NCBI GenBank assembly: GCA_963785725.1
Contig: CAWAWS010000014.1
Location: forward strand, 379,511 to 443,510
Length of the DNA: 64,000 bases
Source: an uncultured delta proteobacterium
GTDB taxonomy: Bacteria > Myxococcota_A > Polyangia > Palsa-1104
Direction of reading: 5' to 3'
Under the pieces are notes generated by a model, which saw only the letters and a list, made by a program, of their open reading frames with translations, ran no database searches and was not told the DNA's origin. Made by a program: the position numbers and the translations under genes. Below, piece by piece: positions 14,446-43,754 of this stretch. How positions within the stretch are numbered: position 1 is the stretch's first letter; each line of letters begins with the position of its first letter.

Positions 14446-14474
14446 ACGATACGGCTCAAGGTCAATAAAGTCAA
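14446..14474 (-). promoter_or_regulatory. sigma70-type promoter of the RRM gene
   Basis: TTGACT-17 nt-TATCGT on the minus strand. Confidence 0.6.
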
Positions 14475-14645: not shown

Positions 14646-17075
14646 ATGGACGTTCGCTGCGAGAAGTGCACGACAGTCTACGAGTTCGACGACTCCAAGG
14701 TCGGCGACCAAGGGGTCACCGTCAAATGCACGCAATGCGGCAACCTGTTCAAGGTCAAGCGGCGCGAGGTCACGTCGGAGCTGCCGCTGGCGTCGATGGC
14801 GGCGCGCTCGGCCGCGTACGTGCCGCCGGCGCGTGAGCGGACGCCGACGCCGCCGCCGGTGCATCCGCGCACGACGACGCAGCCGCAGATGCACGCGCGC
14901 ACGCCGACGCCGCCACCGGTGCAGCCGGCAGCCCAGCCGCGCGCGCCGATGCAGCAGCCCGTGCAGCAGCCGCAGCAGCGGCCGGTCGCGACCAATCCCG
15001 AGCGCACGACCGCGCCCGGCGTGCCGTCGCTGCACGCCGAGGTCGTGGCCGCGTCGCGCCCGAAGCCGCCGGCGCAGCCGACGGGCTGGATGCTGCGCAA
15101 AGGCGACTCCGGCGACGTCTTTCGTTTTCGCGAGCTGACGACGCTGCAGCAGTGGATCGTCGAGCGCAAAGTCTCGCGCGACGACGAGATCAGCCGCACC
15201 GGCGATCAGTGGAAGCGCCTCGGCGGCATCGCCGAGCTGGCGTCGTTCTTTCACGTCGTCGAGCAGGCGGAGGCGGTGGCGCGCGCCGAAGGGCCGCGCG
15301 CCGCGGCCGAGGCGGCGAACGCCGCCTACCATCGCAACCAAGACGATCCGGCGCTGGTGACGACGGCGCCGATGGAAGCGCCGAGGCCGATTCCGCCGCC
15401 GAGCCAAGACTTCTCGGGGCCGACGTCGATGGGCGATCCCGTCGACATCGACGAGCCGGCGTTCACGCGCGGGCCGCAGCCGGGGCGGCGAACGAAGATG
15501 ACGCCGCTGCCGCCGCTCGACGACGAGTCGACGGACACCGACTTCGAGACGCGGCCGAGGCGGCGCGGCGGATTGTGGGCCGGGCTGGCGGCGCTGGCGG
15601 CCATCGGCGGCGCCGGCGGTTACGTCGCGCTCTACAAGCAAGACGCCGTGCGCTCGCTGTTCGCCCATCCCGACGCGCGCGCCGACGAGGCCTATCGGCA
15701 GGGGCGCGAGTATTTCCTGCTCGACTCCGATGATGCGTTTCGCAATGCCGTGGCCGCGTTTCAGCGGGCCCGCGCCGTCGATCCCAAGGGCGCGCTGGCG
15801 TTGGCGGGCTTGGCGGAGGTCGACTCGACGTGGGCGCAGTATCTGCGCGACGAAGCCAAGGCGCTCGAGACCGGCGGCGCGTCGGTGCAAGCGGCGACGG
15901 CGGCGCGCACGCTCAAGCGCGAGGCGCAGGCGCACGTCGACGAAGCGTCGAAGCTGACCGCCGACGCGCTCGAGCTCGACTCGGACGCGCCCGAGGTCAA
16001 TCGCGCCATGGCCGACTACCTGCGCGTCGACGGCGCGGCGGCGGCCGAGGTGCAGCGCTATCTGACGCGCGCGACGACGAAGAAGCCGAACGATCCCGAG
16101 AGCGCGTATGTGGCGGGCGCGTTGGCGTTGCGCGATGGGCAGCTCGACGAAGCCAAGGCGAAGCTGACGCAAGCGAACCAGCTGAACCAGACGGCGACGC
16201 AGCACACGCTCTTGCGCGCGTCGATGCTGCTGGCGCGCATCGATGTGTCGACGGGCGACAAGGCGGCGGCGCGCGCGGCGTTGCAGTCGGTGCTGCTGGC
16301 CAATGGGCAGCACGATCGGGCCAAGACGATGCTGGCGGCGCTCGACGGTGAGCCGGCGGTTGCCGGCGCGACGCCGCCGCCGGCGTCGACACCGCCGGCC
16401 GCTCCCGCAGCGAGCGGCGTCGCGGTCGCACCGACGGGCGCGACGGTCGCGCCGACGGCAGCGAATCCGGCGGCGACGACGGCCAAAGCGGACGTCGGCG
16501 GCGACGCGGGCGGCGGCGGCTACGACAAGCTCGTCGCGCAAGGCGATCGGCTGAGCGAGAACGGCCACGCTCGCGAAGCACGCAAGCTGTACGAGAAGGC
16601 GCTGCAGCTGCAGCCGTCGGGATTGGCGGCGATTACCGGGCTCGGCTATTGCGATCTCGACGGCGAGAAGTTCTCGTCTGCGGTCGATCACTTCAAGCAC
16701 GCCTTGTCGCTGCAGGCGAGCTACGGCGAGGCGATCATCGGGCTCGCCGAAGCCTACAAACTGCGCGGCGATAAGCACGAGGCGGTCGGCTGGTACAAGC
16801 AGTACCTCGACAAGCTGCCCAACGGTCCGAAGGCGGCGATGGCGCGCAACAACGTGCGCGACTTGGAGCCGCGCGGGCCGGGCGCGCCGCCGGCGCCGGC
16901 CGAAGAGCTGCCGCATCTGCCGTCACAGGCGACGGCTGTGCCCGCGCCGCCGACCGTCACCGATACGCCCAAGCAGGACGCGCCCAAAGTCGAGCCCGTC
17001 AAGGCGGAAGAGCCGAAGGACGACAAGCCGGTCGCGTTGCCGAAGCTTCCCTCTGGCGACGAGCCGCCACCGTAG
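14646..17075 (+). CDS. MJ0042-type zinc-ribbon, TM and TPR protein
   Basis: MDVRCEKCTTVYEFDD...VKCTQCGNLFKV, Pro-rich linker, LQQWIVERKV...WKRLG (GYF_2-like), one TM helix, periplasmic TPRs. Confidence 0.85.
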   Translation: MDVRCEKCTTVYEFDDSKVGDQGVTVKCTQCGNLFKVKRREVTSELPLASMAARSAAYVPPARERTPTPPPVHPRTTTQPQMHARTPTPPPVQPAAQPRAPMQQPVQQPQQRPVATNPERTTAPGVPSLHAEVVAASRPKPPAQPTGWMLRKGDSGDVFRFRELTTLQQWIVERKVSRDDEISRTGDQWKRLGGIAELASFFHVVEQAEAVARAEGPRAAAEAANAAYHRNQDDPALVTTAPMEAPRPIPPPSQDFSGPTSMGDPVDIDEPAFTRGPQPGRRTKMTPLPPLDDESTDTDFETRPRRRGGLWAGLAALAAIGGAGGYVALYKQDAVRSLFAHPDARADEAYRQGREYFLLDSDDAFRNAVAAFQRARAVDPKGALALAGLAEVDSTWAQYLRDEAKALETGGASVQAATAARTLKREAQAHVDEASKLTADALELDSDAPEVNRAMADYLRVDGAAAAEVQRYLTRATTKKPNDPESAYVAGALALRDGQLDEAKAKLTQANQLNQTATQHTLLRASMLLARIDVSTGDKAAARAALQSVLLANGQHDRAKTMLAALDGEPAVAGATPPPASTPPAAPAASGVAVAPTGATVAPTAANPAATTAKADVGGDAGGGGYDKLVAQGDRLSENGHAREARKLYEKALQLQPSGLAAITGLGYCDLDGEKFSSAVDHFKHALSLQASYGEAIIGLAEAYKLRGDKHEAVGWYKQYLDKLPNGPKAAMARNNVRDLEPRGPGAPPAPAEELPHLPSQATAVPAPPTVTDTPKQDAPKVEPVKAEEPKDDKPVALPKLPSGDEPPP

Positions 17076-25563: not shown

Positions 25564-25640
25564 CGGGGCGTAGCGCAGTCTGGTAGCGCGCCTGGTTTGG
25601 GACCAGGATGCCGCAGGTTCAAATCCTGTCGCCCCGACCA
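25564..25640 (+). tRNA. tRNA-Pro (TGG)
   Basis: Acceptor stem CGGGGCG/CGCCCCG, D-loop TGGTA, anticodon arm CCTGG-TTTGGGA-CCAGG, GGTTCAAATCC T-arm, encoded CCA. Confidence 0.97.
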
Positions 25641-25844: not shown

Positions 25845-26377
25845 TCACTTGAGGTTGTTATCTATACCGGCCTTCGTATCCGGGTGCAGCCGAATAACCT
25901 CGTCCCGATGCTGACGAACCCAATCGCCATCCACGAACGCGAGCTCCGCAGTAATCTGAGCTGGCTGGCCATTGGGATCCAGCGCCTCCTTTCTCGCCAA
26001 ATCGCGAGCTTCCCCGTCCGTACTGATCAACTTCGCCATGACCCAAAGCAGCCAGAATTCGAGGTCCTTGTCGTCGCCGTTGATGTAGACGCCTTTGAAC
26101 GAGGACGATCGCCTCGGATGAAAGGGAGCACTGCCCTCGTAAGATCCGACTTGGGAGCTGAGTGCAAGAACTGAAGCGCCCTGTATCTCAGCTCGGGATC
26201 TGCATCACCGATTCTTCGGACAATCGCCTCTCCTAGCGCTTGTCCCTGCGGCGTATTCCCAATCCGCTGCCATTCGCGAAGCAGTCCTTCTAGCGGCCCC
26301 GAATCAGTCGACCGCCCGTCGCCGTCCGTTCCAGTCAAGTAGGCTCGGGCCAACTCGTCGATCTGCGCGTCGAGCAT
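25845..26377 (-). CDS. Hypothetical helical protein, putative immunity protein; frameshift near 26100
   Basis: RBS CAGGAG before ATG 26377; MLDAQIDEL...FIRGDR joins FKGVYINGDDKDLEFWLLWVMAKL...; directly downstream of a toxin-like fragment. Confidence 0.55.
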
Positions 26378-26389
26378 GTTTATTGGCTC

Positions 26390-27295
26390 CTGCGTTGTTT
26401 GGTGCCGCCGGGTGCGCACCATCTGCCGGCCCGTTTGCGCTGTCGTGCTTCGGCGCCGCCGGCGCGGTCGGCATCACGAGCGCTCGCTGCTTGAAGTGCT
26501 TGAGCGCCATCGCTTCATGACGGCCTCATAGGTGTTGTTCTTGGTGAGTCCCCAATGCGGATCTTGAGAGTGCTTCCACAGGCGTCGCCCTCCCAGCCCT
26601 GCATCATGCCGTCGAAGGAGGTCGGCTTGAACATCTCGATGCCAGCCGTTTTCAACTCGGCGGGCGGCATATCCAGACGAACTGCGCCATGCGTGTAGTT
26701 CACGTCCTGGTGAATGTAGAGCTGCTCGCGCAGCTTCTCCAGATTCGCTGCGTTGGCCGCAGAGGAGGGGAACCACCAAGTCTCGTCCGCCTTGCCCTTG
26801 AGCACTGCCTCGTTGTTCATGTCACGCGAAGGCTCGAACTTGTTCTCACGCGTTCGCTCGATCAAATCGTCGGCGGTGTTGATGCGATTCGCAGCGACGA
26901 ACGCTCGATTCACGTAGCCATAGTTGAAGATCGAGGGAAGATCGACAACTCGCGAAACACCGTTCGATCCGGCGATGATCTGCTCAGGAACGAGATTTCC
27001 AAGGCAGAGGTATTTCTGTCCGGCCGTCGACACTTCATCCCGCATGGCCTTTGTGAGGTCGCTCGGTCGCGCCTGCGATGAACTGAGGTCGAATCGCCAC
27101 GGCGCGCGGCCGCACTTCGTTCATCAGAGCTTGATACTTCTGCTTGGCGATTCCCGGGTGGCCGCGCAGGCGTCTCCCAGTGTCTCCGCCGCGGGCGCAT
27201 TCGCCCCGGCCGCTCCGCCGGCTTGGCCCTGCGGCTGTGCGGCGTGAGCGCCGTCTTGTGGCTTGCGCTGGATGCGTCCCGCCTGCTGACCTTGA
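26390..27295 (-). pseudogene. 5'-truncated, frameshifted polymorphic-toxin-like gene; boundaries approximate
   Basis: GRIQRK linker then a globular domain with GAVRLD, FKPTSFDG and WGLTKNNTYEAV spread over several frames. Confidence 0.5.
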
Positions 27296-27641
27296 AGAAG
27301 TTCGAAATGCGATTGCGGGCCCACTCTCGATCCCCCAAGACGGCGAATACATGGCGCGCGACTATGTCCTCAAAGGCATGCGCGACTACTGACCGTCGAA
27401 GCGAACGAGTCTGTCACCGGCTATTCCGCGATATCTCGAAGCAAGAATCAGCTCTTGGCGGCCGACTCAATCGTCGACGGCCCACTTGCTCGCAAATTAC
27501 GCTTCGTGCTAACTTTGCTGCAACTTGCCTGTTATTGCGGATACTTATAATCCACGTCACGCAACGAACGAGCTCATTGTCGTTCGGGCGCAGCTAAGAA
27601 ACGCCTCGCCGGGCGCGTATGGTGGCCCTCCCCGAAAGAGA

Positions 27642-28469
27642 GTGCTGCGTTCGTTCATCTTCTTGATCTCCGCGCTGGTGGGGCTCTTGTCGTACGACGC
27701 GAGCGTGTCGGCCAATGAAAGGTCCGAAGCGCGCGAGCACTTCGAGAAGGGTACCAAGGCGTTCGAGCTCGGCGCCTACGACGAGGCCATCGCCGAATAC
27801 TCCGCGGCCTATCGCCTCCGCGACGATCCGGCGTTGCTCTACAACCTCGCCCAGGCGAACCAATCGGGTGGCCACTTGGTCGAGGCGCTCCGTTTCTACC
27901 GGCTCTTTCTCATAAAGGTACCGAACACGCCGAACCGCGCCGAAGTTGAAGACAAGATCGCCGACCTGCAGAAAGCGACAGAACTACAGAAAAGGCCTGC
28001 GGAGGCTGCCCCCCAAGAGCCAAAGCCCTCAGTCACCGTCGCAGCCCCGGAGCCGCCACCTTCCGTCGCGGTGACCGCGTCGCCGCAAGCTTCGCAGGCG
28101 ACAGCACCATCCGACTCCACTGCCACCCGGCCCGGGAACGTGAAGAGGATAGCTGGTATCGTTGTTGGAGTCGTCGGCGTCGGTGCCGTCGTGGGTGGTG
28201 TGGTTTGTGGCGTACTGGCACAAAAAGCGGGCGACAAACTCTCCCAACTCGACCAGTCAAAGCAGACCTTCGACTACAACCAAGAGCGAAACGGCAAAAC
28301 GGACCAGCTTCTCGAGGGAGTTCTTCTCGGAGTGGGCGCGGCAGCGATTGTCGCGGGCACGGTCACATTCATCGTGGGACAGCGCGAAAAGAATCGGTCG
28401 CGTCAGGTCTCTATCGCCCCCATCGCAGGCGCCAATCTCGCGGGTATCCTAGTCAACGGACGGTTCTGA
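27642..28469 (+). CDS. Exported TPR protein with C-terminal Gly-rich hydrophobic helices
   Basis: Signal peptide; AREHFEKG..FELGAYDEAIAEYSAAY, LLYNLAQA; ends ILVNGRF. Confidence 0.85.
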   Translation: MLRSFIFLISALVGLLSYDASVSANERSEAREHFEKGTKAFELGAYDEAIAEYSAAYRLRDDPALLYNLAQANQSGGHLVEALRFYRLFLIKVPNTPNRAEVEDKIADLQKATELQKRPAEAAPQEPKPSVTVAAPEPPPSVAVTASPQASQATAPSDSTATRPGNVKRIAGIVVGVVGVGAVVGGVVCGVLAQKAGDKLSQLDQSKQTFDYNQERNGKTDQLLEGVLLGVGAAAIVAGTVTFIVGQREKNRSRQVSIAPIAGANLAGILVNGRF

Positions 28470-28732
28470 TGCGCTTCCTATTGCTCGGTTCACTGCTCCT
28501 GGCTGCCGGTTGCTTTTCGCCCAAGTACGGGAACGGCGACTTGAAGTGCCAGTCGGGCGCACATCCTTGCCCAGAGGGATTTCAGTGCGCGCCTGACAAC
28601 ACATGCTGGAAGACCGGCTCAGACCTGGGCTCGTCTCATGACATGTCCTCTACTGATATGACGCCTACGGCCGTCGGCAATTGCGTTCTAGACAAAAACC
28701 ATTTAAACGACGGCTGCAGTCTTGCGCCGTGA
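28469..28732 (+). CDS. Small Cys-rich lipoprotein
   Basis: Lipobox LAAG-C, C..G.HPCPEGFQC..DNTCW, DL/DM linker; TGATG coupling to the TPR gene. Confidence 0.75.
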   Translation: MRFLLLGSLLLAAGCFSPKYGNGDLKCQSGAHPCPEGFQCAPDNTCWKTGSDLGSSHDMSSTDMTPTAVGNCVLDKNHLNDGCSLAP

Positions 28733-28739
28733 GGGATCT

Positions 28740-29435
28740 ATGAGTGAGCGAGAGATCGTCGTTCGATTCCGACTCCCAGAATCACCGCGGCAGCGCTGGC
28801 TGTTCGCTATCGTGCTCGTGGTCGTGTGCTTCGGCGCCGCGGTGTACGCAACTGTACCCAACACGTTCGCAGCAGGAGACTTGCTCTCCGCACAAAAGCT
28901 GAACGACAACTTCTCCAATCTCGACGGTCGCATTGCGGCCATCGAGACCGCCTCGGCTCCAGTGCCCTCGGGGACTATCATCGCTTTTGGCGGCACGACC
29001 GCGCCGGCGGGCTATCTGGCCTGCGACGGAGCATCTGTGACCCAGGCGAGCTATCCCGCCTTGTTCGCCGCCATCGGTACAGCGTGGGGCAGCGCCGATG
29101 CAACGCACTTCAACGTGCCGGATCTCCGCGGTCGATTCCCGCGCGGAGATGACCAAGGCGCCGGGGTCGACCCCGACGCAGCCTCGCGTATCGCCTTGGT
29201 CTCCGGCGGAGCAACTGGCAATAACGTCGGTTCGTATCAGCTCGACCAGTTTGCGAGCCACTTCCATACATACAACCGCGCGCCCACTGCGTTCTCTGAG
29301 CAGGTGTCCGGTTCGTCCGTTCTGGGCGGCGCGCAAAGTCCGACCTACGCGCCAGTTGCGGACAAGGTCAATGCAGCAGGTGGCAGCGAGAGCCGCCCGA
29401 AGAATGCGTACGTTCGCTATCTAATTAAGCTCTAG
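28740..29435 (+). CDS. Membrane-anchored or exported phage tail-collar domain protein
   Basis: N-terminal TM, then VPSGTIIAFGG..PAGYLACDG..YPALFAAIGT.WG..FNVPDLRGRFPRG and ESRPKNAYVRYLIK. Confidence 0.9.
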   Translation: MSEREIVVRFRLPESPRQRWLFAIVLVVVCFGAAVYATVPNTFAAGDLLSAQKLNDNFSNLDGRIAAIETASAPVPSGTIIAFGGTTAPAGYLACDGASVTQASYPALFAAIGTAWGSADATHFNVPDLRGRFPRGDDQGAGVDPDAASRIALVSGGATGNNVGSYQLDQFASHFHTYNRAPTAFSEQVSGSSVLGGAQSPTYAPVADKVNAAGGSESRPKNAYVRYLIKL

Positions 29436-29539
29436 TCGACATGCGGGTAGCTCCGCGTCGACTCTGACCGGCTGCTCGCATCCCGAAGACCGATGCTGTC
29501 TTTCCACCACCTCATTCCTTTCTCGCTCGTGATTTAGCC

Positions 29540-31141
29540 ATGCCACGCAAATCGCCGCCGCAACCACTGACAAGGCAGCCGCGCCTAACCAAGACGATCG
29601 TCATCGCCATGGTGTTCGCGGCCGCTTGGGTGCTTTTTGCAACATCTCACTTTGGCGTCGGGCTAACGCCGGATTCTCTAGACTACATCGCCGCCGCCAA
29701 GTCACTAGCCGCCGGCCGGGGCTATCTCAACTCGGATCAGACGTTTTTTTCAGCTTGGCCTCCGCTGCTACCAACTGCATTGGGCGCGCTCAAGATTGCT
29801 GGAGTCGATCCAACCCATGGTGCGCGATATCTAAACGCCCTCTGCCTGGCGTTGATTGTCTGGCAAAGCGCATGTTGGTTTCGCTCTTTCTCACAATCCA
29901 ACGTCGCGCTTCTATTTGGGCTGGGCGCCGTTCTCGTTTCCCGGCCGTTGTTGCGGATATCGCTGCTTGCGTGGACCGAGCCAATGTTCTGTTTGTTTGT
30001 CTTGGTCTTCATCAATCAGATATCGGGATTTCTGAGGACCCGCGCAAACACCAAGCTACTGCTTGCGGGTCTGGCGGCAGGCGCAGCCATGCTGACACGG
30101 TATATCGGCTTCACCTTGATTATTAGCGGCGGAATCTTGCTGCTTCTTGATCGCCGCCGCTCCATACGCGAAAGAATCTTCGCCGCCGCTGCCTTCGGTA
30201 GTCTCTCAGTCCTGACTTACGCGCCCTGGGCGATTCGAAATCTGTCTCGCTCTTTGAGTCCGACGGGTGCCAAACGCGTCTTCGGCTATGACGTGCCAAG
30301 CCTGGCGCAGAATCTCTCGACCACGGGTGACTTCATGACCCGCTGGTTCTTGCCTCCCAACATTCCTCTCGCGTTCCGACTGCCCTTGGGAATTGTGGTC
30401 CTCGCCCTGGTGGTCGCTGTCACTCTGCGTTCTCGCGGCGAGAGCGATAAAACCCGGGACGACGAGCCACTCGCAATCTCCCCGTTCCTTTCCGGGATCA
30501 CGTTTCTGGTCATCTACTTCACAACTCTCATAGCCCTCGCGTGCAGCATTCACTTCGATCCAATACAAGACCGTCTTCTGTCGCCCATTTATGTGCCACT
30601 GATTGGTGTTTTTGTGTTCGCGATCAATCAGGTCGATGCTGCATTGGCTTCGCAGTCGTCCGCTGGGAAGAGCACAGCCCGACTGTTGGCCTCGTCCGTT
30701 GTCGGGCTTTCACTGCTCTATCCGCTCGCGTTCGTTGGGGTCATGACGAGGGAGGCTCTTACCGTGGGCACAGGCGGATACTCGAGCGCCGCTTGGCTGA
30801 GCTCCGACCTGATCGCCTACCTTCGCGCCCACCCCGTTAGCGGGAGCCTTGCGAGTAACTCAGACAATGCCGTGCTTTATTTCACGGACCTTCCTGCATT
30901 TCCGAGCGCAAGTCGCGTGAAGTCCGAGAGCGATCGCGAAGCAATGGGCGCGTGGATCAAGGCTCATCTGCTCGGTACGCAGACTTATCTCGCATGGTTC
31001 AAGCCGCCACTGACGGCAGTCGAATCGGATTACTACCAGCCCGAAGAGTACTCGAAAGTGTTCGACGTCTCCGTGGTTCACACCAGCTCTGACGGAACCC
31101 TCTTCCTTCTGACCACTCGCACCGATCGCATACACGACTAA
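29540..31141 (+). CDS. GT-C fold (ArnT/PMT-like) membrane glycosyltransferase
   Basis: TPDSLDY, WPPLLP, WTEPMF, LTRYIG motifs; many TM helices; lower GC. Confidence 0.75.
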   Translation: MPRKSPPQPLTRQPRLTKTIVIAMVFAAAWVLFATSHFGVGLTPDSLDYIAAAKSLAAGRGYLNSDQTFFSAWPPLLPTALGALKIAGVDPTHGARYLNALCLALIVWQSACWFRSFSQSNVALLFGLGAVLVSRPLLRISLLAWTEPMFCLFVLVFINQISGFLRTRANTKLLLAGLAAGAAMLTRYIGFTLIISGGILLLLDRRRSIRERIFAAAAFGSLSVLTYAPWAIRNLSRSLSPTGAKRVFGYDVPSLAQNLSTTGDFMTRWFLPPNIPLAFRLPLGIVVLALVVAVTLRSRGESDKTRDDEPLAISPFLSGITFLVIYFTTLIALACSIHFDPIQDRLLSPIYVPLIGVFVFAINQVDAALASQSSAGKSTARLLASSVVGLSLLYPLAFVGVMTREALTVGTGGYSSAAWLSSDLIAYLRAHPVSGSLASNSDNAVLYFTDLPAFPSASRVKSESDREAMGAWIKAHLLGTQTYLAWFKPPLTAVESDYYQPEEYSKVFDVSVVHTSSDGTLFLLTTRTDRIHD

Positions 31142-31232
31142 CCAGTCAGCAGATCGGCGACATGCGGGCGCTCATCGGAGCTATCCAAGGGGCGCTTTGA
31201 CGACGTCGCCCACGCATGGTCCCATCCGCGCC

Positions 31233-31540
31233 ATGGGCTCAGCCGCTGCCGATTCCAAGACTTCCAACATCATGAGCCGCGCCGAGATGTCGCGGCTGAT
31301 CGCCAAACGGCTGCAGCGCGACGCCGCGTTGTTGCGTCAGTCGTGGTCGTCGGCGCGCCCGTTCCGCCACTTCGTCGTCGACGATCTGCTGCCGCTCGAG
31401 GTCGGCCGGAAGAGCCGCTCAAGCGACTGGTGCTCAAGGTGAGCGACGGGCTGCTCTTGAACTTCGTGGGCCGCCACTTCCCGTGGTTGACGCAGCTGAC
31501 GAAACACCGCATCAAGACGCCGCCGGCGAAGCAGCCGTAA
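31233..31540 (+). pseudogene. 2OG-Fe(II) oxygenase-like gene with central deletion
   Basis: N-terminal WSSARPFRHFVVDDLLP joined out of frame to a C-terminal RPEEPLKRLVL...; catalytic core absent. Confidence 0.55.
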
Positions 31541-31779
31541 TTGGCGATAAGTTTACGGCGCCGAAACGGGCAGGAACGCCCGTCCGTCCCTAAACACGGT
31601 GGCGTCGCAGTCGCAGCCGCCAACTGGTCGCAGTCAAAGCCTTCCGAGTGGTCATGGCCGCAGCCCCTCGAGTCGTCGCATTCGCAGCCCGCCAAGTCGG
31701 TTCGAGGCAACGCCGGACCGCTCAGCGAATTCCTTCCTTCGCGCCCAGGCCGCTGTCATGCCAGCGCTCGACCCGCTTG

Positions 31780-32030
31780 ATCAAGACTTCTCGCGGTGCT
31801 CGCGCCATCCAGCGATTGGAGATCCGCTCGCTCCACCGCCGTCACGACGCTGTTCGCCGAACGGATACGTCAGTACCCAGGCGACTCCCCACCGGAGGAA
31901 CTGCCGCTCGATCGGATGAAGACGCAGGCGTTGCCGCCCGGCGCTCGTGCTGCTCTGCAGCGTGGTCGCCAGCGCCCAGGTCAAGCTGCGCCGCATCGAA
32001 GGCTGGCCGGACATCGTGCACATGCTTAGC
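31780..32030 (+). mobile_element. IS256-family transposase C-terminal relic
   Basis: RMKTQALP...LVLLCSVVASAQVKLRRIEGWPDI resembles the IS256 C-terminal motif KTQxxLP...ASGQIKLRRIDGW (recalled, not searched). Confidence 0.55.
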
Positions 32031-32104
32031 TGGCACGCATGTCCAATAAGAGGTAGCGTGAGCCCTGGTGCTACATACATGAACCGCTGGTTGCGGAGAT
32101 CCCC

Positions 32105-32473
32105 ATGGTCCAGTCGTCGTTGTCACTCCTGGTCCTCCGGGCGGAGGATCTCGATCGTTCGCTTCGCTTCTATCAAGCGTTGGGGCTGAAGTTTACCGAA
32201 GAGCAGCACGGCAATGGGCCCCTGCACCATGCGTGTCAGCTTGGCGAGGCGGTACTTGAGCTATACCCAGGCAAGCCCGGGAGCGCCCCGGACCGACGGA
32301 GCGGAGGCGCAACTATGATTGGATTCCGCGTGGATTCGCTGTCGCAAACGCTGCTGACGCTGGCCGAGCTGGGAGTCACAGTTCTGACAGCGCCAAGCCC
32401 GTCCTCGACGCCCTCGCGAGCGGTAGTAGAGGATCCTGATGGACGTGCCATCGAGATTCGGGGGAAGGAGTGA
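32105..32473 (+). CDS. VOC/glyoxalase family protein
   Basis: LLVLRAEDLDRSLRFYQALG, EQHGNGPLHH, LELYP, GFRVDS, DPDGRAIE. Confidence 0.85.
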   Translation: MVQSSLSLLVLRAEDLDRSLRFYQALGLKFTEEQHGNGPLHHACQLGEAVLELYPGKPGSAPDRRSGGATMIGFRVDSLSQTLLTLAELGVTVLTAPSPSSTPSRAVVEDPDGRAIEIRGKE

Positions 32474-32825
32474 GGGCAACCGAACCGTGCGATCAATATC
32501 CGAATAGAACGGGCGGATCAGGACGCAGTCAAGCGGACCTTCGGAGCGATAGCCATCCTCCGTGGCATCCAGGCACCGACGGAAAGCTCAATCGGCGTGG
32601 CATCCAAAGGCAACCCAATGTCATCGATCAAAGGTGTTCCGAAAAGGGTTGGGCGTGGCCAAAATCCGGTGCCACGTGGGTGCCACGGCGAGAGCATTTT
32701 GACGAGGTCAGACGGGAAAGACGGAACAAGCGGGGCCGAACACTCGAGCTCTAATACAGCGCCAATGTTAAGGAAACGTCGCAAGCCAGCGTCGCTCCTT
32801 ATCATTTCTAATATCGGGACAACCG

Positions 32826-32855
32826 GGTTCAAATCCTGTCGCCCCGACCAATTAA
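32826..32855 (+). repeat. att site: duplicated 3' end of tRNA-Pro
   Basis: 30/30 identity to 25616-25645. Confidence 0.95.
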
Positions 32856-32866
32856 CTACAGATTGT

Positions 32867-33050
32867 CTAAGTAGCTTTCTCCTTTCGGTCAGGCATCACT
32901 GCAACGGCGCCGAGCATCGCGAAGGTACGGCGGTCGGTGTCGCTCTCTTTCTCGCGGATATTGAGGATCTCGTCCGGGATCTGGCGCGCCTTGGTCGCTG
33001 GCGGACTCGACGTACAGCATCGTTTCGTCGATCCGCTTGTGGGGATCGAC
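32867..33050 (-). pseudogene. Tyrosine-integrase C-terminal remnant (start of island 2)
   Basis: HKRIDETMLYV (H...T..Y catalytic segment), then after a frameshift RQIPDEIL...DTDRRTFAMLG; abuts the att copy. Confidence 0.65.
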
Positions 33051-33255
33051 GGCCCAAACGACCCGATCAACCGCGAGGTTGAGCACTTGTGCCGGGGAAC
33101 CCCGATTTGCCTCCCTCGGGATCGTCAGCCCGAACGGCACGACAACTGCGAGGTCTCGTAGGCGAAGTGCAAGCCGCCGTCATGAATGGCACGACCAACC
33201 TGCGAAGTCGCTGCGTGCGCCCAAATGGCGGGCCAATCGTCGACGCAGTTTGCGA

Positions 33256-33939
33256 TCAACGCGCCAGCGGGAGCGCGCCTTTGCCCAACGTCACCACCGG
33301 CCCCATCGCCGACGGAGTGCTCACCCGAAAGCTCGCCAGGAAATGGTCGAGCTCAGCGAGCGGAGCGCTCGTCTTCTCGGGACAGCTCAGGACGACGACG
33401 ACCGAGACACCGGACGTCCCCGCCCCCTTCGCGCCACCGCGTGTGGCGCGCCGCGTGGTGGCGTGGATTACGGTCACGTCGATCAGTCGATGTGTGCTCG
33501 TGTCTCGTTCGCGCACGACCTCGCGGAGCAGCTCGCGGTTCCACTCCTCGCCGTGGACATCGAGACTGCCGACGAGGTACTGCCGCTCGCCCGCGCTCTG
33601 CTCGTCCTTGCTCCACGGGGTGAGTCCGCAGCCCTTCTCCTCGCAGAACGTCGCCCAGTCCCCCTGCTCGACGAGCGAGACCGGCATGTTCGGGGCTTCG
33701 AGCCGTGTCCGGCTGACCGTGACGAAGCAGCCCGCTTGCGCTTGCTGCTCCGCGATGACCTCGACCGTCCAGTCGTGGTCGGGGTCACCGTACAGCTTGA
33801 GCTTGCGCGGCCGTGTTCCCGAGGCAGCCTGCCACGACGGAGGGACCGCGGCCTCCACACCCTCCGCGAGGCGTTCCGCGCTCGCCGCGAAGGGGCAGCA
33901 GAGCAAGAGTCCGGTAAGCACGACAAATCGCGCGATCAT
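33256..33939 (-). CDS. Hypothetical exported protein
   Basis: Signal peptide MIARFVVLTGLLLCCPFAASA; protein-like composition. Confidence 0.6.
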   Translation of the reverse strand: MIARFVVLTGLLLCCPFAASAERLAEGVEAAVPPSWQAASGTRPRKLKLYGDPDHDWTVEVIAEQQAQAGCFVTVSRTRLEAPNMPVSLVEQGDWATFCEEKGCGLTPWSKDEQSAGERQYLVGSLDVHGEEWNRELLREVVRERDTSTHRLIDVTVIHATTRRATRGGAKGAGTSGVSVVVVLSCPEKTSAPLAELDHFLASFRVSTPSAMGPVVTLGKGALPLAR

Positions 33940-34049
33940 GGACGGTCTCCAGTGAAAGAATGCAGGCATTCACGCGACGTGGGCAAGGGCTCCTTTGGAG
34001 ACGACGAAACATCGTTGTTCTCCCAGCCACCGTTGTCGCGACACACCGG

Positions 34050-34195
34050 AGCAGTACGACTGGCGCCGGCCCCAGCGCGACAGAGCCATGTGGTCGACTC
34101 CCAGCTCGCTGGCGAATTCGCGCGCCGTCAGCCCATTCTCCCGCCATCGCTCGACGTGCTTGGCCCGTAATTTCTCTGCTCGCGCGTGGGCACGC
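34050..34195 (-). mobile_element. IS66 TnpA-like relic
   Basis: ASREI/AKHVERWRENGLTAREFASELGVDHMALSRW, an HTH resembling IS66 accessory TnpA; frameshifted. Confidence 0.55.
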
Positions 34196-34224
34196 AGCGC
34201 CGATGATCCGGCGCGACGAACAGC

Positions 34225-34500
34225 TCACTCGCGTCGTCGTGAAATCAACCCGACGACGGCAACGAAGAGGGTCGCGCCGATGATCGACCATACAATCGGA
34301 AAGCGAGTGTGGCGTAGCTGAAAGACGAACAGCTCGGGTAGTCGCAGCTTGCGCGCGAGCCACACGCCGATGAGGGCGCCGATGAAGCCGAGCGCGATCG
34401 AAGCGAGACAGCCACCGCGCGAGTAGCCGGCGATCGTCTGGCCAATGGCGCCGCAGATCCCGGCGACGAAGAGGAGGATGACGAGATCGAGGACGGACAT
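34225..34500 (-). CDS. GlsB/YeaQ/YmgE family small membrane protein
   Basis: AGICGAIGQ, SIALGFIGALIG, PIVWSIIGA; RBS GAGGTG. Confidence 0.85.
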   Translation of the reverse strand: MSVLDLVILLFVAGICGAIGQTIAGYSRGGCLASIALGFIGALIGVWLARKLRLPELFVFQLRHTRFPIVWSIIGATLFVAVVGLISRRRE

Positions 34501-34897
34501 CGTTCACCTCGTGTAGCCATCGACTCTACCGCAGATTCGCGTTCTTGCCTGTGCGAGGACTCATCCGCTTGACCAGTGGGGACAACCAAGAGAAGTCGTT
34601 CACTGACTGGTTCCAGCGTACCGCGGGCAGGCTCTTAGACACGGAGGTAGCACAGCGCGTATTTGAGATAGGGACGGATTGGGGTTCTACGGACCCCACA
34701 AGCGAGCCGCCGTCTGACGTACGCGAAGACTACGCGTCTGTGTTGAGCTCTCGGTTTCTCCGCAAGACTGAGCGCCCGTCACCCGCGAACGCGCGATTCG
34801 CACCGCGAGATCATGCTCGTGTACGATCTGCGGAATGAGCGCTGAGCTCCGTGCCGCGTGCGGGCCGACACACTGGTGAGCGAGAGGAGCCGACCGG

Positions 34898-35278
34898 ATG
34901 CCCGAAGACAAGGTGTTCACTCCCGGAGCCAACAGGATCTTCGTGTTCGGCTCGAACGCAGCCGGCATTCACGGTGCCGGCGCGGCATTGACGGCCAAGA
35001 AGAAATACGGTGCGCGGCAGCGGGTCGGCGAAGGATTGCAAGGCGCCAGCTACGCCATCCCGACAAAGGATGAGCGAATCAGGACGCTCCCTCTCGACGC
35101 CGTAAGAAATGGGGTCGAGCGCTTCCTGACCTTCGCTCGTAGTCGACCCGATCTAACGTTCTTCGTCACGCGCATTGGCTGCGGATTGGCCGGATACACC
35201 GACGTGGAGATTGGACCGATGTTCATTGGCGCGCCGGATAACTGCGAGCTGCCCGAAGGCTGGGGCTGCCCGCTGTAA
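34898..35278 (+). CDS. A1S_2505-like phage-associated protein
   Basis: IFVFGSNAAGIHGAGAA, GEGLQGASYAIPTK, FFVTRIGCGLAGY, LPEGW. Confidence 0.75.
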   Translation: MPEDKVFTPGANRIFVFGSNAAGIHGAGAALTAKKKYGARQRVGEGLQGASYAIPTKDERIRTLPLDAVRNGVERFLTFARSRPDLTFFVTRIGCGLAGYTDVEIGPMFIGAPDNCELPEGWGCPL

Positions 35279-35974: not shown

Positions 35975-36610
35975 TCAGAAGAACGACTTGGGCGGCCGCG
36001 GCGCCACCGGCGCCTTCAGCGGCGCCGGCGCCGGCGCGGTCGTGACCGGCGGCTGCTCCTTGCCGACGTACAGAATCTTCTGCAGCGCATGATGCCCGGT
36101 CGCGCCCGGCCGCGGTCCCACGCCGCACACCGTCTCGGCCGCGCAGCCGTCATGCTCGAGGTAGTGCACGACGACCCGCGTGAACCCCGCCGACGCCAAC
36201 GTCTGGCGCGCCACCTCGACCCGCTGTCCGACGACGTCCGGCATCGGCGCGCGCGTCGGCGCCGGCGCGCCCGGCGCGGGCCGCGGCGGCTGCACGTAGA
36301 GCGCGATCGGCTCCTGCTTCATCACGTCGGCGCCCGGCCACGGATAGCTGTAGCAAACGACGCCCGCCGCCGCCTGCCGGCCACAATCCTCCTCCCGCCA
36401 GTCGACGAGCCCGAGCTTACCGGCACGTCGCAGCTGCTGCTCGGCCGCCGCCGCGCTGACCCCGCGCAGGTCGGGCATCTTGAAGTGCTGCGGCCCTTCG
36501 AAGCGGCTGTGGCGATAGCCCGGATGCGCACATCCGATCGCGCTCAACGTCAGCACGAGGACGAGACTGCGCGGCAGCGTTCGCGACGATTCTCGCGTCT
36601 GGCGGCTCAT
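35975..36610 (-). CDS. Lipoprotein with two PASTA-like domains
   Basis: Lipobox SAIG-C; MPDLRGVSAAAAEQQLRRAG and MPDVVGQRVEVARQTLASAGF; ATGA overlap with the upstream gene. Confidence 0.75.
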   Translation of the reverse strand: MSRQTRESSRTLPRSLVLVLTLSAIGCAHPGYRHSRFEGPQHFKMPDLRGVSAAAAEQQLRRAGKLGLVDWREEDCGRQAAAGVVCYSYPWPGADVMKQEPIALYVQPPRPAPGAPAPTRAPMPDVVGQRVEVARQTLASAGFTRVVVHYLEHDGCAAETVCGVGPRPGATGHHALQKILYVGKEQPPVTTAPAPAPLKAPVAPRPPKSFF

Positions 36611-37392
36611 TCGACGGCGTCCACCGGGTTCCGGCTCGAGTGCGTCCACATCCACTGGCGCAGGCCGCGCCACTGCGTCTTCCACTCCGGCGCCAGCGCC
36701 GCCGACGGCCGCTCGCCCGCGTGCACGAGCAGGCTGCCGGCCAGCTCCTCGGCGTCGGCGTCGCCGGCCGCGCGCGCCGCGGCGACGCCGCCCATCATCG
36801 CCGCCATGCGCGGCCCGAGCAGCGTGCGCCAATAGAGCCGCCGCGGCTGATGCCGCACGTGACGCTCGCGCTTCCAATCGCCTTCACGCTTGGCCTCCTG
36901 CTCCGGCGACTGCGGCACGCGCGACTGGACGAGGCTCGGCTGCAGCTCGGCCCGCGCCTCCACGTCGGTCGGAAACGGCTGCGCACCGCCGATGAAGAGC
37001 GGCAAACACTCGGCGGCGCGGCGCAACAGCGTCTCCGCCGCCGCCACGAGCGCGTCCTCGCTCGCGCCACCGTCACCGACGCGCGCGATGAACGAAATCT
37101 CCTGCGGCATCAGCCCGGGTGCGCGGCGCCACAGCTGACCGTGCAGATTGAACGTGGCCTCGCTCCACAGCGTCACTTGCGAGCGCTCTTCGTCCGCGAT
37201 GAATTCGTCGAGCTTCGCCGCCGAGAACGGCCGATCGGCGATGCCGGAGTCGCGCTTGCGCATGCCCCACACGCGAGCGGGCGTCACGCCGCTGGCCGCC
37301 AACACGTCGCGCACGATCTGCCCGACGACGCCGCGATGCGCGCTCTCGTGCTCCTCGAACAACACATAGGCGAGCAGCGAATAATGGCTCAT
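36607..37392 (-). CDS. Putative toxin immunity protein
   Basis: No signal peptide; ATGA-coupled to the nuclease toxin gene; RRLYWRTLLGPRMAAMMGG resembles the W-x-T-x-LG...GG motif of DUF3396/TsiV-like immunity proteins. Confidence 0.65.
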   Translation of the reverse strand: MSHYSLLAYVLFEEHESAHRGVVGQIVRDVLAASGVTPARVWGMRKRDSGIADRPFSAAKLDEFIADEERSQVTLWSEATFNLHGQLWRRAPGLMPQEISFIARVGDGGASEDALVAAAETLLRRAAECLPLFIGGAQPFPTDVEARAELQPSLVQSRVPQSPEQEAKREGDWKRERHVRHQPRRLYWRTLLGPRMAAMMGGVAAARAAGDADAEELAGSLLVHAGERPSAALAPEWKTQWRGLRQWMWTHSSRNPVDAVE

Positions 37393-39538
37393 TGCACGCA
37401 CTGATATTCGTTCTCGCACATGCTGTACGTCTTGACCTCGGTGTCTTGAAGGCGATCTTCTTGTCGTCGTCGATGCACTTGGCGTCGGTGAGCTTCTGGA
37501 TCGCGCCGCTGCCGCCGTGATCGTCGTCGGCGCTGCCGCTATTGTCGATGAGATCTTGATAATAGCGCCGGACCAATTCGCGATAGTTATCGAGCTGCCG
37601 ATTGCCTTTATCGATGGCCTTTTGATTGTCGGGTTTGAACTCGTAAATGATGCAGTCGGCGAACACGACGCAGTCGGGGCGTTCGTCACTGCCGGGGAAG
37701 CTCTTATCGGCGACGTCGCAGCCGTCGCTCATGTCGCGGTGCCGCTGCTTGCCGTATTCGATGGCGTGCTGCACGAGCGGATGGTCGGCGCCGCGATAAG
37801 CGCCGGTCTGCGGCAGGCTCTGCAGCTTGTCGTGCACCGCCTTCAAGTCGTCGTATTTACGCTGCGTATCATCGTGCGTGTCGGGATTGTTGAGCGGCAC
37901 TTGCGCCGCCGCCTCGACCGCCGCGTAGCGATCGAGCACCGGCTGAATCGTGCTCTGCATTTGCGCGCGAATGTCGTTGGCGGCGCTGCGGCCGCCGTCT
38001 TTGTCCGGGTCGTCGCCCTCTTCCCAATCGTCGCCGCAGAACGCCGTCCAGATCGACTGCATGCCGTCGCAGTCGACGCGATAGCAGGCGCGCGCGTCGG
38101 CCATCCAGCGATCGGCGAGCGCGATAAAGCCGACTGCGGCATTTTGTCCAGTCTGCGTCATGATGCCGAGCGCGGCGACGACGTCGGGATTGCCGTCGGC
38201 CTGGGCCACGACGTCGCAGCTGGCGTGCGACTGCGCCAGCATGCCTTCCCAATATTGCTCCAGCGCGTCGGCCGACTGCGCCATGGCCGTCGCCACTTCC
38301 TTCCACGAGTCGTCGTCGGGCGCGAACGCTTTGACGGCATCGCGCGCCTTTTTCACCGTGTCCAAGCTGGCCGTCGCGCGCGCCAAAGAATCGACGATAG
38401 GCGCCGCCAGGCTCTTGGCGTTCGTCGTCAGCGTCGTGGCCGCGCCTTTGGGATCGTTCGTATTCTGCAGCGCGTCGTTGATGGCGTTCTGCAGCTGTCG
38501 GCCGGCGCTGTTGCAGGTGTCGCGGCCGTTATCGAGCGTGTGCTGAAACTGCTTGAGCTGCCGGAGCGCGCTCTCGGCGTTCAAGAAGTCCTTCAAGATC
38601 TGCGGCCACTTCGTCAGCATCGTATTGGCCGGCGCATCGGTGCCCGCCAGCGGCGTCAAGTCGGCCAAGTTGGTCTGAATTTGGTTGGCGCGCCCTTCGC
38701 TGCTGGCGATGAGGCCGTCGTCGCTCGACGACGTCGCGTCGGACACGGTGGTGGCCACGCCGCGCACGTTCATGCGCATCGTATCGACGAGCTGATCGCG
38801 CGCCGCCTTCAGATCGCCGAGAAACTTCACGGTCGCCACCAGCGCCGGATGATCGCTGGGCGACAACAGCGGCGTGCACGACCGCGTGTACTCTTGGCGA
38901 TTGCGATCCCACTTCGTCCAGGCGTCGTCGCCGCCACGCTTGAGATTGTCGCGCGCCGTCGACCATGCGCCGTCGCCCCTGAAGTTGCCGGTCGTGTCGT
39001 GGGCGTCGGTCAGCGTCGCGTTCATCGCCTCGGCCGCGTCCCACGTCGGCTTCAGCGGCGCCAGCGCCGACTGCGCCAGCGGCGGCGCTTCGGTCAGGCC
39101 ATTGGTGTTCTTGTCGTCGACATATTTCTTCAGCTGCGCGCGCAGCGCCGCGTCTTGCGCTTGGCAGGTGGCGTCGAAGTTGGCGTATTGATCCTGCGCC
39201 GTCGTCAGCTGCGTGAGCGCGTTCGCCGCCGCCGGGAAGAGCGCCACCTCGTCGCGCCACTGCGACAACAGCGACGCCGCCGCCGAATCCGCGCCTTTGA
39301 CGGCATCGAGCTGGTCGAGCGCGCTCTTGATGTCGTCATTCTTCGCCAGCGCGCCGCTGACATCGGCCGGCAGCCGGCCGGCCAAGTCGTTGAGCAGCGA
39401 CGTCAGCTGCGCCGTCAAGGTCGCGCGCGTTTGCGCATCGGCGTCCTCCTCGGCGCGCGCCGCGCCGTCGGCCGCGAGCAACACCAGCGCGCCCGCCGCC
39501 ACGAGCAAAGCTCCCCTTCGCCCCACTGCATTCGTCAT
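37389..39538 (-). CDS. Secreted helical-repeat protein with C-terminal PD-(D/E)xK (REase-fold) nuclease-like toxin domain; frameshift near 37440
   Basis: Signal peptide ending AARA; YGKQRH...RPDC...IYEFKPDN...GNRQLDNY; the shifted frame ends EVKTYSMCENEYQCVQ* overlapping the next ATG. Confidence 0.8.
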
Positions 39539-40868: not shown

Positions 40869-43716
40869 ATGACGCTTAATCCTCGTTCAGTCGCGCTTCT
40901 GTGCGGCATTTTGTCGCTCACGGGCTGTATCGACATCAATCCCGCGCCCGGCACCTATTACTGCACGCAGACGTCGCAGTGTCCGTCCAATCAATATTGT
41001 GACATTCCCACCAACTCTTGCGTTCGCAACGGTCAGGTCGTCACGCGGCCCGACATGTCGATGGGCATGGATCTGGAGCCCGCGTGCAACTGCGCGCCGC
41101 CGACGAGCGGCTGCCAGACCGTGAGCTGCGACGACAGCGGCGCCTGCGTCACGTCGCCCGTTCCCGGTGGCACGGTGCTGCCGGCGCGCTTTCAGACGCC
41201 GGGCGATTGCGTGCAGCTCGTCTGCGACGACAACGGCAACTCGACGTCGATCGCCGACACCAGCGACACGCCCAACGTCACCGACTGCCAGACCGCATCG
41301 TGCAGCGGCACGACGCCGGTGACGACCAGCAAAGCGCCGGGCACGCCCTGCGCCGGCGGCGGCGTGTGCAACGACAACGGTCAATGCGGCGGCTGCACGC
41401 CCGCCGACGTCAAGTGCGACAACGACGTGCCGCAGACCTGCACGCCCGACGGCGTGTGGCTGAACGGCCCGCCCTGCGCCTATGCCTGCTCGGCGGGCGC
41501 GTGCGTCGGCGTGTGCGTGCCGCAGACGATGGAGTGCCTCAATAACGCGCCCGCCAGCTGCAACAACTTGGGCCAGTGGACGGCGGGCGCCGCGTGTCCC
41601 GAGGTCTGCAGCGCCGGCGTGTGCGGCGGCTCGTGCACGCCCGGCTCGCATCAGTGCACCGGTAACAACGTGCAAGAGACCTGCGATTCGACCGGCAAAT
41701 GGGGCTCGGATACGCCTTGCCAATACGTCTGCACCGGCGCCGGGCAATGCACCGGTCAATGCGTGCCCGGCACGTCGCAGTGCGGCAGCGCGGTGACGCC
41801 GCAGAGCTGCTCGTCGAGCGGCAGCTGGGTCAGCGGCAGCGACTGCCCGTATGTCTGCAGCGGCGCCGGCGTGTGCAGCGGCGAGTGCAAACCCACGAGC
41901 GCGCGCTGCCTCGACGACGTCACGCCGCAGACCTGCGACGCCACCGGCAAGTGGCAGACCGGCACCGTCTGCCCCGACGCCTGCACCGGCGCCGGCGTGT
42001 GCGGCGGCAACTGCCATCCGGGCGCGCGCCAATGCAGCGGCAAGAACCCGCAGACCTGCGACAGCACCGGCACCTGGCAGAACGATCAGAGCGGCGCTTG
42101 CACCTACGTCTGCAGCGGCGCCGGCGTGTGCGGCGGCTCGTGCAATCCCGGCGACAAGATGTGCAACGGCCTCACGCCCGAGACCTGCTCGTCCGCCGGC
42201 GCGTGGACGCCCGGCACGGTCTGCCCGTACGTCTGCTCGGCCGGCGTCTGCAGCGGCGTCTGCACTCCCAACTCGAGCGCTTGCCTCAACAGCACGACGC
42301 CCGAGAGCTGCGACGCGACCGGCACCTGGCAGCCGAAGCCGGCGTGCACGACCGGCGTCTGCTTGAACGGCAGCTGCAGCGGCACGTGCACGCCCAACAC
42401 CATGACGTGCAACGGCAACATCTCCGAGAAGTGCGACAGCACCGGCAACTATCAGCCGGTGCAGACGTGCGCGTTCGGCTGCACCGGCGCCGGCGTCTGC
42501 AGCGCGCTCGTCGCGCCCACGCCGTCGGTGATCGTCGACGGCTCCGACATCTCGGTCAGCTGGACCGATCCCGGCATCTCCGGCGTCACCTGCCACATGG
42601 AGCGCTCGGCCAACGGCGGCACGACGTGGGCGCAGCCGGCGACCTCGGTCAGCCCGTGCCCGGCCAACGCCAAGACGCCGTGCAACGCCTACGACCCGTG
42701 GCTCTTGCGCGCCAGCTACCTCTACTCGGTCGTCTGCGCCGGCTCGGGCACGACGGCGCGCTCGGCCACCGTCGCCGCCACGCCCGGCATCGAGCTGTGC
42801 GGCACGACCTACACCAAGAACACCTACGTCGTCGACGGCCTCAGCCCGGGCACGGTCAAGACCGAGCGCACCGTCTCGAACGCGCAGTCCAACGCCGGCT
42901 TCACCAACGCCTGGGGCATCGCCGCCGATACGGCAGCCGGCGAGATCTCGGGTCTCCAGCCACGACTCGAACAACATCATGGTCTTTCAGCGCACGGCCG
43001 CCGATCCGACGGGCTTGACCGGCTCGCGCTCGCTCTACGTCTCGCCCGAGGGCGCCACGACGTCGCTGCAGCCGACCAGCATCGCGCTGCTCGGAAACGA
43101 GGTCATCGTCGCCACGCGCGTGTCGCCCTATTATCTGGCCGGCTACCCGCGCACGTTCACGAGCAGCATCGGCACCCCGTCGACGGTCGCGCCCAACTGG
43201 TGGATCAAGGGCACCGCCGCCGGCCTGAACCTGCCGATCTCGCTCGCCACCGACGGCGGCAACCTCATCTACGTCGGCAACGCCGGCTCGCACTCGGTCG
43301 GCGTCTATCACCACGACACGCTGGTGTCGGCGGCGGCCACGAACCACACGGCGCTGCCGGCGGGCACGGTGTCGCTCACCGGCATCAACAATCCGACGGC
43401 CGTGGCGGTCGATCCGACGGCGCGCGAGCTCTTCATCGCCGACGAAGCGGGCGTGCGCATCGACGTCATGAGCGCCGACGCGACCGCGGGCAGCATCAAG
43501 CGCTCGATCACCATCAACGGCTCACCGAGCTGCGGCTTGTCGATGCCGATCGCCATGCGCGTCGACTCGGGGACGCTCTACGTCCTCAACTACGACACCG
43601 GCATCGTCGCCGGCATCAAGAGCACCGCCAGCGACGCCGACTCGGGCGGCGCCGTGGGCACGAAGCTCCTGACCTCGGATTTTGGCAGCGGCGTCGGGCT
43701 CGCCGTCTGCAACTGA
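40869..43716 (+). CDS. Large Cys-rich repeat lipoprotein with FN3-like and beta-propeller-like C-terminus; frameshift near 42950
   Basis: Lipobox LTG-C; nine ~41-aa six-Cys repeats (C.PG..QC....P.TC...G.W...C...C..G.C); ISVSWTD; AWGIAAD, PTAVAVD NHL-like strands. Confidence 0.8.
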
Positions 43717-43754
43717 CGCTTTAGCGACATCAATCGACACACATGGGAGGGGAA

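Follow-up and report, generated by a model that had tools for sequence, protein, structure and literature searches.

A probable polymorphic toxin and immunity locus with a PASTA lipoprotein in an uncultured member of the Polyangia

We analyzed a three-gene locus (35975..39538, minus strand) on a stretch of DNA from an uncultured delta proteobacterium of the class Polyangia (assembly GCA_963785725.1, contig CAWAWS010000014.1); the whole stretch of 64,000 nucleotides is called the window here. The locus holds a gene for a secreted helical-repeat protein with a nuclease-like tip (gene 1), a gene for a predicted immunity protein (gene 2), and a gene for a lipoprotein with PASTA domains (gene 3). 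It very probably encodes a polymorphic toxin plus its cognate immunity protein: the family features come from sequence comparison, and toxicity and binding are predicted. Across the family, we found a shared architecture, repeated swapping of the tip, downstream genes matched to the tip, an immunity-type fold for gene 2, and frequent linkage to the lipoprotein. The features are listed below, with restriction endonuclease abbreviated to REase and the predicted local distance difference test to pLDDT.

37389..39538, minus strand: gene 1, encoding a secreted protein of helical repeats that ends in a Tox-REase-9-like tip; 715 amino acids by comparison with the intact relative P0004; 3' end frameshifted in the assembly
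39452..39538, minus strand: signal peptide of the signal peptidase I type, residues 1-29; A-R-A end, acidic mature N-terminus, no lipobox
38828..39442, minus strand: helical module 1, residues 33-237; invariant Cys pair C125, C221; model pLDDT mostly >70
38168..38815, minus strand: helical module 2, residues 242-457; a homologue of module 1 by hhalign (99%, E 3e-18); invariant Cys pair C342, C441
37793..38167, minus strand: helical linker, residues 458-582; exchanged together with the REase tip; conserved DC...W..FC.D motif
37392..37792, minus strand: predicted REase-fold tip; G596, H600, D622, E633, K635, and five Cys kept in nearly all members; residues 590-660 match Pfam Tox-REase-9
37440..37441, minus strand: two extra bases relative to near-identical relatives; last 16 codons of gene 1 out of frame
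36607..37392, minus strand: gene 2, predicted cytoplasmic immunity protein of 261 amino acids, predicted TsiV/TsiT (DUF3396/Imm52-like) fold, clade I1
35975..36610, minus strand: gene 3, two-PASTA lipoprotein (lipobox Cys27); Cys in both PASTA domains, Pro-rich tail, conserved Phe at the end

The first-pass annotation had read three minus-strand genes joined by ATGA overlaps, with one indel to be corrected near 37440, and both points held. The overlaps lie at 37392-37389 (genes 1 and 2) and 36610-36607 (genes 2 and 3), and the G+C content at third codon positions switches frame at both junctions. Gene 1 starts at 39538, and its assembled frame runs on into gene 2 past the expected end. P0004 (98% identical to gene 1) and four more relatives share a conserved C-terminal tail, ...C-x-N-x-Y-Q-C; in the window, this Cys-bearing tail lies in another frame, with its stop at 37389. 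The two extra bases stand out against P0004, other relatives, and an independent soil-run contig (532 bases, 12 differences, depth 5.2) that does not have them at 37441.

An assembly error at 37441 is likelier than a broken copy, since other genes of the same assembly are also split across frames, as the secretin matches on C13 and C14 indicate. For the copy of this genome only, it is possible though doubtful that gene 1 has really been disrupted and that the immunity gene is what keeps the locus in place. In favor of a broken copy, the frameshift removes the conserved last strand of the tip, with its invariant Tyr and Cys, and genes 1, 2, and 3 are each single-copy in the genome. However, the near-identical relatives are intact (P0004 and the contig of soil run X1), and the frameshifted G033 homologue has two intact database proteins in its cluster, which fits long-read indel errors.

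At the family level, a profile of the N-terminal 550 residues (E ≤ 0.001) retrieved 223 clusters (50% identity), the best 150 of them listed. The cleavable signal peptide without lipobox proposed for gene 1 was supported by its A-R-A end and acidic mature start, the family consensus of the mature N-terminus being A-D-D-x-S-D-R-R. By a hydrophobicity-plus-motif heuristic, 77/104 family proteins of at least 440 amino acids carry a signal of the signal peptidase I type (many others are N-truncated), and 3/77 signal-bearing proteins present a lipobox-like pattern. The signal had also been described as possibly twin-arginine, and this did not stand: a regular-expression test found an RR-type motif in just 3/77. 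The twin-arginine motif being not conserved, we rejected Tat export.

The long helical, Cys-containing body was likewise recovered. In the gene 1 model, almost the whole chain is helical and confidence over the modules is fair (mean pLDDT 72.8, predicted template modelling score 0.43), and each module holds a Cys pair that is invariant in 47/47 rows. The module, previously unnamed, spans about 214 amino acids and is present in one to four copies per member; self-BLAST did not reveal the repeat, and profile comparison did. As first read, gene 1 had no RHS, PAAR/VgrG, CdiA/FHA, LXG, DUF4157, or SitA-type marker, and we found no known carrier domain (RHS, PAAR, VgrG, DUF4157, FHA, LXG, SitA) in 82 family members by Pfam or in 47 by NCBIfam. 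Foldseek with the full gene 1 model gave no match at E ≤ 0.001, which does not by itself make the fold new, and an Atlas search with the scaffold gave no usable match. Matches of family proteins to ApoLp-III, SMC, and Rad50 were weak and below the cut-offs, and we discarded them as coiled-coil noise.

At the C-terminus, the G..H / RPD / E-x-K / Q..Y pattern had been taken for the core of a Tox-REase toxin, and a Pfam match agrees with it: the tip scores 34.5 bits against Tox-REase-9 (PF15650; gathering cut-off 27.3, E 2.4e-8). In gene 1, the pattern reads G596-H600, R-P-D622, E633-F-K635, and Q648..Y652, with a Pro after K635. Among 84 database proteins of the REase group defined by BLAST clustering, the catalytic residues are kept in 82 (D), 81 (E), 80 (K), and 83 (H), the GxxxH, D, and E-x-K-P motifs in 79-83, and the five tip Cys in 81-82. 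Thus, the motif and the match point to a predicted PD-(D/E)xK DNase as the likely nature of the gene 1 tip.

Not all members carry this tip. Tox-REase-9 matched 36/82 scanned members at E ≤ 0.01 (9 of these above the gathering cut-off), and Ntox16 matched 14/82 (11 above the cut-off), reaching 54 bits at locus L004. BLAST clustering of the last 135 residues gave a REase group of 125 rows, an Ntox16 group of 22, and a tipless group of 4, the remainder being mostly fragments. Five family members are tipless, and tipless scaffolds with two to three or more modules are found at L023 (8285-10582) and L022 and in P0029, P0040, and P0011; the two with DNA context presented neither an immunity gene nor a lipoprotein nearby. 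At the other extreme, a minimal member of 248 amino acids (L093, 5986-6732) consists of a signal, a partial module, and a REase tip; an I2-like gene follows, and a lipoprotein gene lies divergent to it.

A REase-9-like tip, an Ntox16 tip, or no tip at all are interchangeable on one scaffold and have been swapped repeatedly. On a scaffold tree of modules 1 and 2 (84 rows, from which duplicates, truncated sequences, and members with a single module were left out), 8 changes are required for the Ntox16 label. Well-supported branches force at least 7 of them, and Ntox16 as a single clade is rejected (p-AU 7e-86). Pairs of loci display the same at close range: scaffold identity is 90% for L078 and L062, 85% for L061 and the second locus of L052, and 83% for L082 and L077, versus 19, 22, and 24% in the part after the modules. 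The check proposed for homologues of the N-terminus –swapped C-termini and variable downstream genes– returned both.

The gene neighborhoods were described at 50 loci taken from the best matches and not from all: the window, L004, L005, L018-L023, and L051-L090, with two loci in one of these. Of the 50, 48 are tipped and 2 tipless. An immunity gene had been expected immediately downstream of the toxin, and the gene found there follows the type of tip. One of the 42 REase loci ends at a contig edge, and in 40 of the 41 with downstream DNA the next gene belongs to clade I1 (18, gene 2 included), I2 (19), or I3 (3). The sole exception is L070, with an unrelated HEAT-like frame. The three clades are homologous to each other (hhalign 83-96% vs. 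0.1% for controls). Behind Ntox16 tips stands another protein, DUF6714, directly after 5/6 loci, at one of these as a fusion with a PASTA domain; L067 yielded none. Because of this position, we nominate DUF6714 as the candidate immunity protein of Ntox16. The fusion (L004, 10220-10981) lies directly before the PASTA lipoprotein gene.

Immunity genes also track the tip within the REase loci. The immunity clade label needs 2 changes, the fewest possible, on the tip tree (40 rows) vs. 4 on the scaffold tree (31 rows), and over 21 loci the identity of the immunity proteins correlates with that of the tips (rank correlation, rho 0.60) more than with that of the scaffolds (0.11), although kinship inflates such figures. 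Orphan cassettes of tip plus immunity gene were detected at L020 and L069, an orphan tip at L068, and extra immunity genes at L052, L056, L058, L074, and L083; the window locus itself has no orphan cassette and no extra immunity gene. On the question of kin discrimination or predation, the extra immunity genes favor competition among relatives. A hydrophobic N-terminus is present in 3/18 I1 and 0/19 I2 immunity proteins vs. 43/47 toxins, so the immunity proteins, mostly lacking one, are likely cytoplasmic.

The reading of gene 2 as a DUF3396/TsiV-like protein stood for the fold and fell short at the sequence level. Against Pfam TsiV, gene 2 scored 13.9 bits, below the 25-bit cut-off (E 0.036), and its best relative scored 17.7. 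The gene 2 model (pLDDT 86.5) matched PA0821 in Foldseek (E 3e-7, template modelling score 0.61), with Z 16.2 and a root-mean-square deviation of 3.4 over 235 residues; the next structural match was a chain of the PA3907-PA3908 complex (Z 10.9). In the Atlas, it matched at 0.96 a cluster that is 18% TsiV. A PDB sequence search with the immunity profile found no match, and none of 52 downstream proteins matched Imm54. According to the papers cited here by their PubMed Central numbers, PA0821 and PA3908 are immunity proteins of VRR-NUC and TOX-REase nucleases (PMC10281587), PA0821 is tied to TsiV3 (PMC9635880), and the PA0821 and PA3907-PA3908 entries hold immunity proteins of PD-(D/E)xK toxins.

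Gene 3 is a PASTA lipoprotein, as first annotated, with its lipobox at Cys27 and two PASTA domains. The lipobox is present in 16/17 aligned copies, together with the conserved Cys of both domains, the Pro-rich tail, and the terminal Phe. The lipoprotein gene adjoins 23/48 tipped loci (14 upstream, 7 downstream, and 2 divergent) and 0/2 tipless ones. In a taxonomic family with many toxin carriers (f10), it occurs in 22/24 carrier genomes vs. 12/57 others, and in any single genome its copies are 87-94% alike. Some relatives differ in build: L068 (6831-8141) and L076 (5368-6621) encode longer PASTA lipoproteins of about 420-440 amino acids, with an extra conserved C-terminal domain lacking a Pfam match. 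At L094 (1773-2621), a 282-amino-acid secreted, Cys-bearing helical protein without Pfam match lies divergent from a PASTA lipoprotein gene and is possibly a second cargo family.

The family is unevenly distributed. It was found in 1/41 other genomes of the same order, among them 0/4 of the same genus, in 4/400 genomes from the phylum (3 candidates only scored per genome), and in 24/81 genomes of family f10, often with several loci each; two metagenome scans found no family loci, and no RNA data set was listed as a holder. Labels include a Deltaproteobacteria metagenome-assembled genome for L005 and, among cluster members, Polyangia, Pseudomonadota, Opitutaceae, and Planctomycetaceae. A model of the TraA N-terminus matched 0/24 carriers and 4/81 f10 genomes, none of them a carrier, though very divergent TraA could be missed; it found no match in the genome of the window, which is 88% complete. 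The f10 genera are separate in this respect: TraA in g282 and g283, and the toxin family in g36, g41, g50, and g284. The genome of the window encodes GspD (above the cut-off) and TssC. Despite TssC, we rejected a type VI secretion system (T6SS) route, given the signal peptide of the toxin and its lack of T6SS markers.

Around the locus, a tRNA-Pro(TGG) at 25564-25640 precedes a stretch of some 9 kb with reduced G+C (about 26000-35000; 0.58-0.66 vs. 0.65-0.73 in the kilobases before), which looks island-like. The toxin locus sits at the right edge of this stretch, yet its codon use is host-like. Within the low-G+C stretch, an open reading frame (ORF) of 176 amino acids (26515-27045, minus strand) has no Pfam match and could be a remnant of a toxin tip. 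On the plus strand, 40869-43724 and 42979-43716 correspond to a Cys-rich repeat lipoprotein-like gene with an apparent frame shift near 42980, perhaps another assembly indel; downstream of it are a 780-amino-acid secreted protein without Pfam match and a 1192-amino-acid NHL-repeat protein. Beside the Ntox16 locus of L004, a second toxin-like cluster (12695-15690) holds a 515-amino-acid protein with a weak papain-like C70 match and an unrelated C-terminus, a gene for 153 amino acids behind it, and a convergent ORF of 319.

Several known systems resemble parts of this family. With Tox-REase-9 (Zhang et al. 2012, PMC3482391), the locus shares the Pfam match above cut-off, the GxxxH/D/E-x-K-P core, the C-terminal position, the adjacent immunity gene, and type II or Sec export, which is listed for Tox-REase-9. 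However, that survey gives RHS, HINT, or LXG carriers with Imm54 in other phyla; here, we found an unnamed helical carrier, a predicted TsiV/TsiT-fold immunity protein, five conserved tip Cys, and no YxxE. Ntox16 (PF15523) is the alternative tip on the same scaffold; as printed in that survey, it has RHS, T6SS, or PVC carriers and no listed immunity protein, whereas here DUF6714 follows at 5/6 loci. The predicted fold of gene 2 and the PD-(D/E)xK class of the toxin recall TseV-TsiV (VRR-Nuc / DUF3396) and TseT-TsiT (PA3907-PA3908). Those are T6SS effectors –TseV1-4 of Salmonella bongori with a PAAR-like domain– unlike a toxin with a signal peptide, no PAAR, and a partner below the Pfam TsiV cut-off.

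The closest parallel in organization is SitA/SitI (SitB) of Myxococcus (PMC8546572, PMC10433427), with an escort-like N-terminus, modular nuclease tips, several loci per genome, an optional accessory envelope gene, and myxobacterial hosts. We nevertheless rejected SitA identity, since SitA toxins are described there as lipoproteins dependent on TraAB, and the family toxins present a signal peptidase I signal without lipobox, no TraA detected in 24 carriers, and a PASTA lipoprotein as accessory. In a review (PMC10433427), undiscovered myxobacterial systems are considered likely, and the kin-killing described works through TraAB exchange, T6SS, or Rhs. PASTA is mentioned for unrelated systems in PMC7159879. 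In the literature searched, Tox-REase-9 and Ntox16 were each named in PMC3482391 alone, DUF6714 was not found named, and, going by titles and the opening of abstracts, no description of this architecture was found; subscription papers, the PMC3482391 supplements, and the 2019 paper on six SitA families fell outside that search, and such a locus could be listed in the subscription papers or the supplements. Although neither the warheads nor the immunity fold are new, we did not find in print the scaffold, the pairing of Ntox16 with DUF6714, or the PASTA lipoprotein as a partner.

If the locus is a polymorphic toxin with its immunity protein, a signal-bearing scaffold of one to four helical modules would carry an interchangeable tip that likely kills rival bacteria, and the gene downstream of the toxin would likely neutralize that tip. 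The toxin would be exported by Sec, with its paired Cys forming periplasmic disulfides. The toxin, which carries no lipid anchor, would then exit the cell; most likely, the two-PASTA lipoprotein would keep it on the surface, or a type II system or vesicles would pass it out. The helical modules may then act as an escort into a neighboring, mostly related cell without TraAB exchange, where the tip would cut DNA in the cytoplasm unless the cognate TsiV-fold protein binds it. We hold the lipoprotein-anchored step of delivery to be tentative. Equally speculative is its broadest form, a contact-dependent delivery route new to biology in TraA-less, Polyangia-type bacteria: one genome-wide two-PASTA lipoprotein might dock any Sec-exported, disulfide-stapled helical-repeat toxin, with the repeats (0.4 to 4 copies) as an adjustable escort rod that takes REase or Ntox16 warheads across the rival envelope, and DUF6714 as the Ntox16 immunity protein.

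Several observations weigh against this interpretation. Activity, toxicity, and uptake are predictions for the whole family, and the gene 1 copy in the window is frameshifted. The tip motif departs from the printed REase-9 consensus (EFKP for ELKP), and YxxE is not conserved in the REase tips of the family. Tip residues 578-638 have pLDDT <50, in a model built from a 6-row alignment of the truncated frame, and the tip profile matched no PDB sequence, so the predicted fold derives from the Pfam match and the motif. Five conserved Cys in a tip working in the reducing cytoplasm are unexplained. Moreover, the helical module may have another role, since tipless scaffolds without immunity exist. Regarding the lipoprotein, none lies beside 25/48 tipped loci, and of 20 further lipoprotein matches, 4 are beside a family toxin or tip and 16 have no family toxin nearby. 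Its co-occurrence in genomes is partly circular, because the profile was derived from copies next to toxins, and the same four genera hold both genes. The lipoprotein correlates weakly with the scaffold (rho 0.26), does not correlate with the tip (0.07), and can differ between 89% identical scaffolds; together with the alike copies per genome, this fits a shared non-cognate helper or a hitch-hiker.

There is a substantial chance, somewhat short of even, that the same toxin-immunity pairs involve a toxin simply released through type II secretion or vesicles, diffusible and bacteriocin-like or prey-killing, and that the PASTA lipoprotein, as a hitch-hiker, does a separate job in the cell envelope. 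The cleavable signal without lipobox, the GspD of the genome, the tipped loci without lipoprotein, the lipoproteins that stand alone elsewhere, and the relatives named outside Myxococcota would all fit free release. However, the lipoprotein gene abuts the toxin gene in three arrangements, with gaps often <40 bases and across three families, and in one DUF6714 immunity protein a fusion with a PASTA domain is seen. Extra non-cognate immunity genes, in turn, imply attack by relatives and not prey killing alone.

Two other explanations fare worse. A secreted, disulfide-stabilized extracellular nuclease for DNA feeding or biofilm remodeling, with gene 2 guarding against mis-sorted enzyme, would suit the Sec signal and the five nearly invariant tip Cys, which befit an oxidizing compartment; replacement by unrelated Ntox16 tips, orphan cassettes, allele-matched guards, and extra-guard arrays are unexpected for such an enzyme, and we regard it as quite unlikely. 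It is very improbable that the locus is a seventh SitA-like family using TraAB outer-membrane exchange, with the lipoprotein replacing the missing lipid anchor. The host class, going by the label of a same-order relative, is Polyangia, and the logic of SitA is shared –conserved N-terminal escort, polymorphic nuclease tip, downstream immunity, and optional accessory gene (PMC8546572)– but the toxins lack a lipobox, and the TraA matches fall in f10 genomes other than the carriers, with none in the genome of the window.

A polymorphic toxin with cognate immunity is thus the reading we prefer. The family has expanded, with several loci in some genomes, in bacteria where TraA was not found (the 24 f10 carriers). 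No delivery machine is recognizable in it, so the nuclease, soluble and exported by Sec, would have to get across two membranes in some unexplained way. The family offers testable roles for three orphans: the unnamed helical module may be an escort, DUF6714 the immunity protein of Ntox16, and the Gram-negative PASTA lipoprotein the partner of the toxin.

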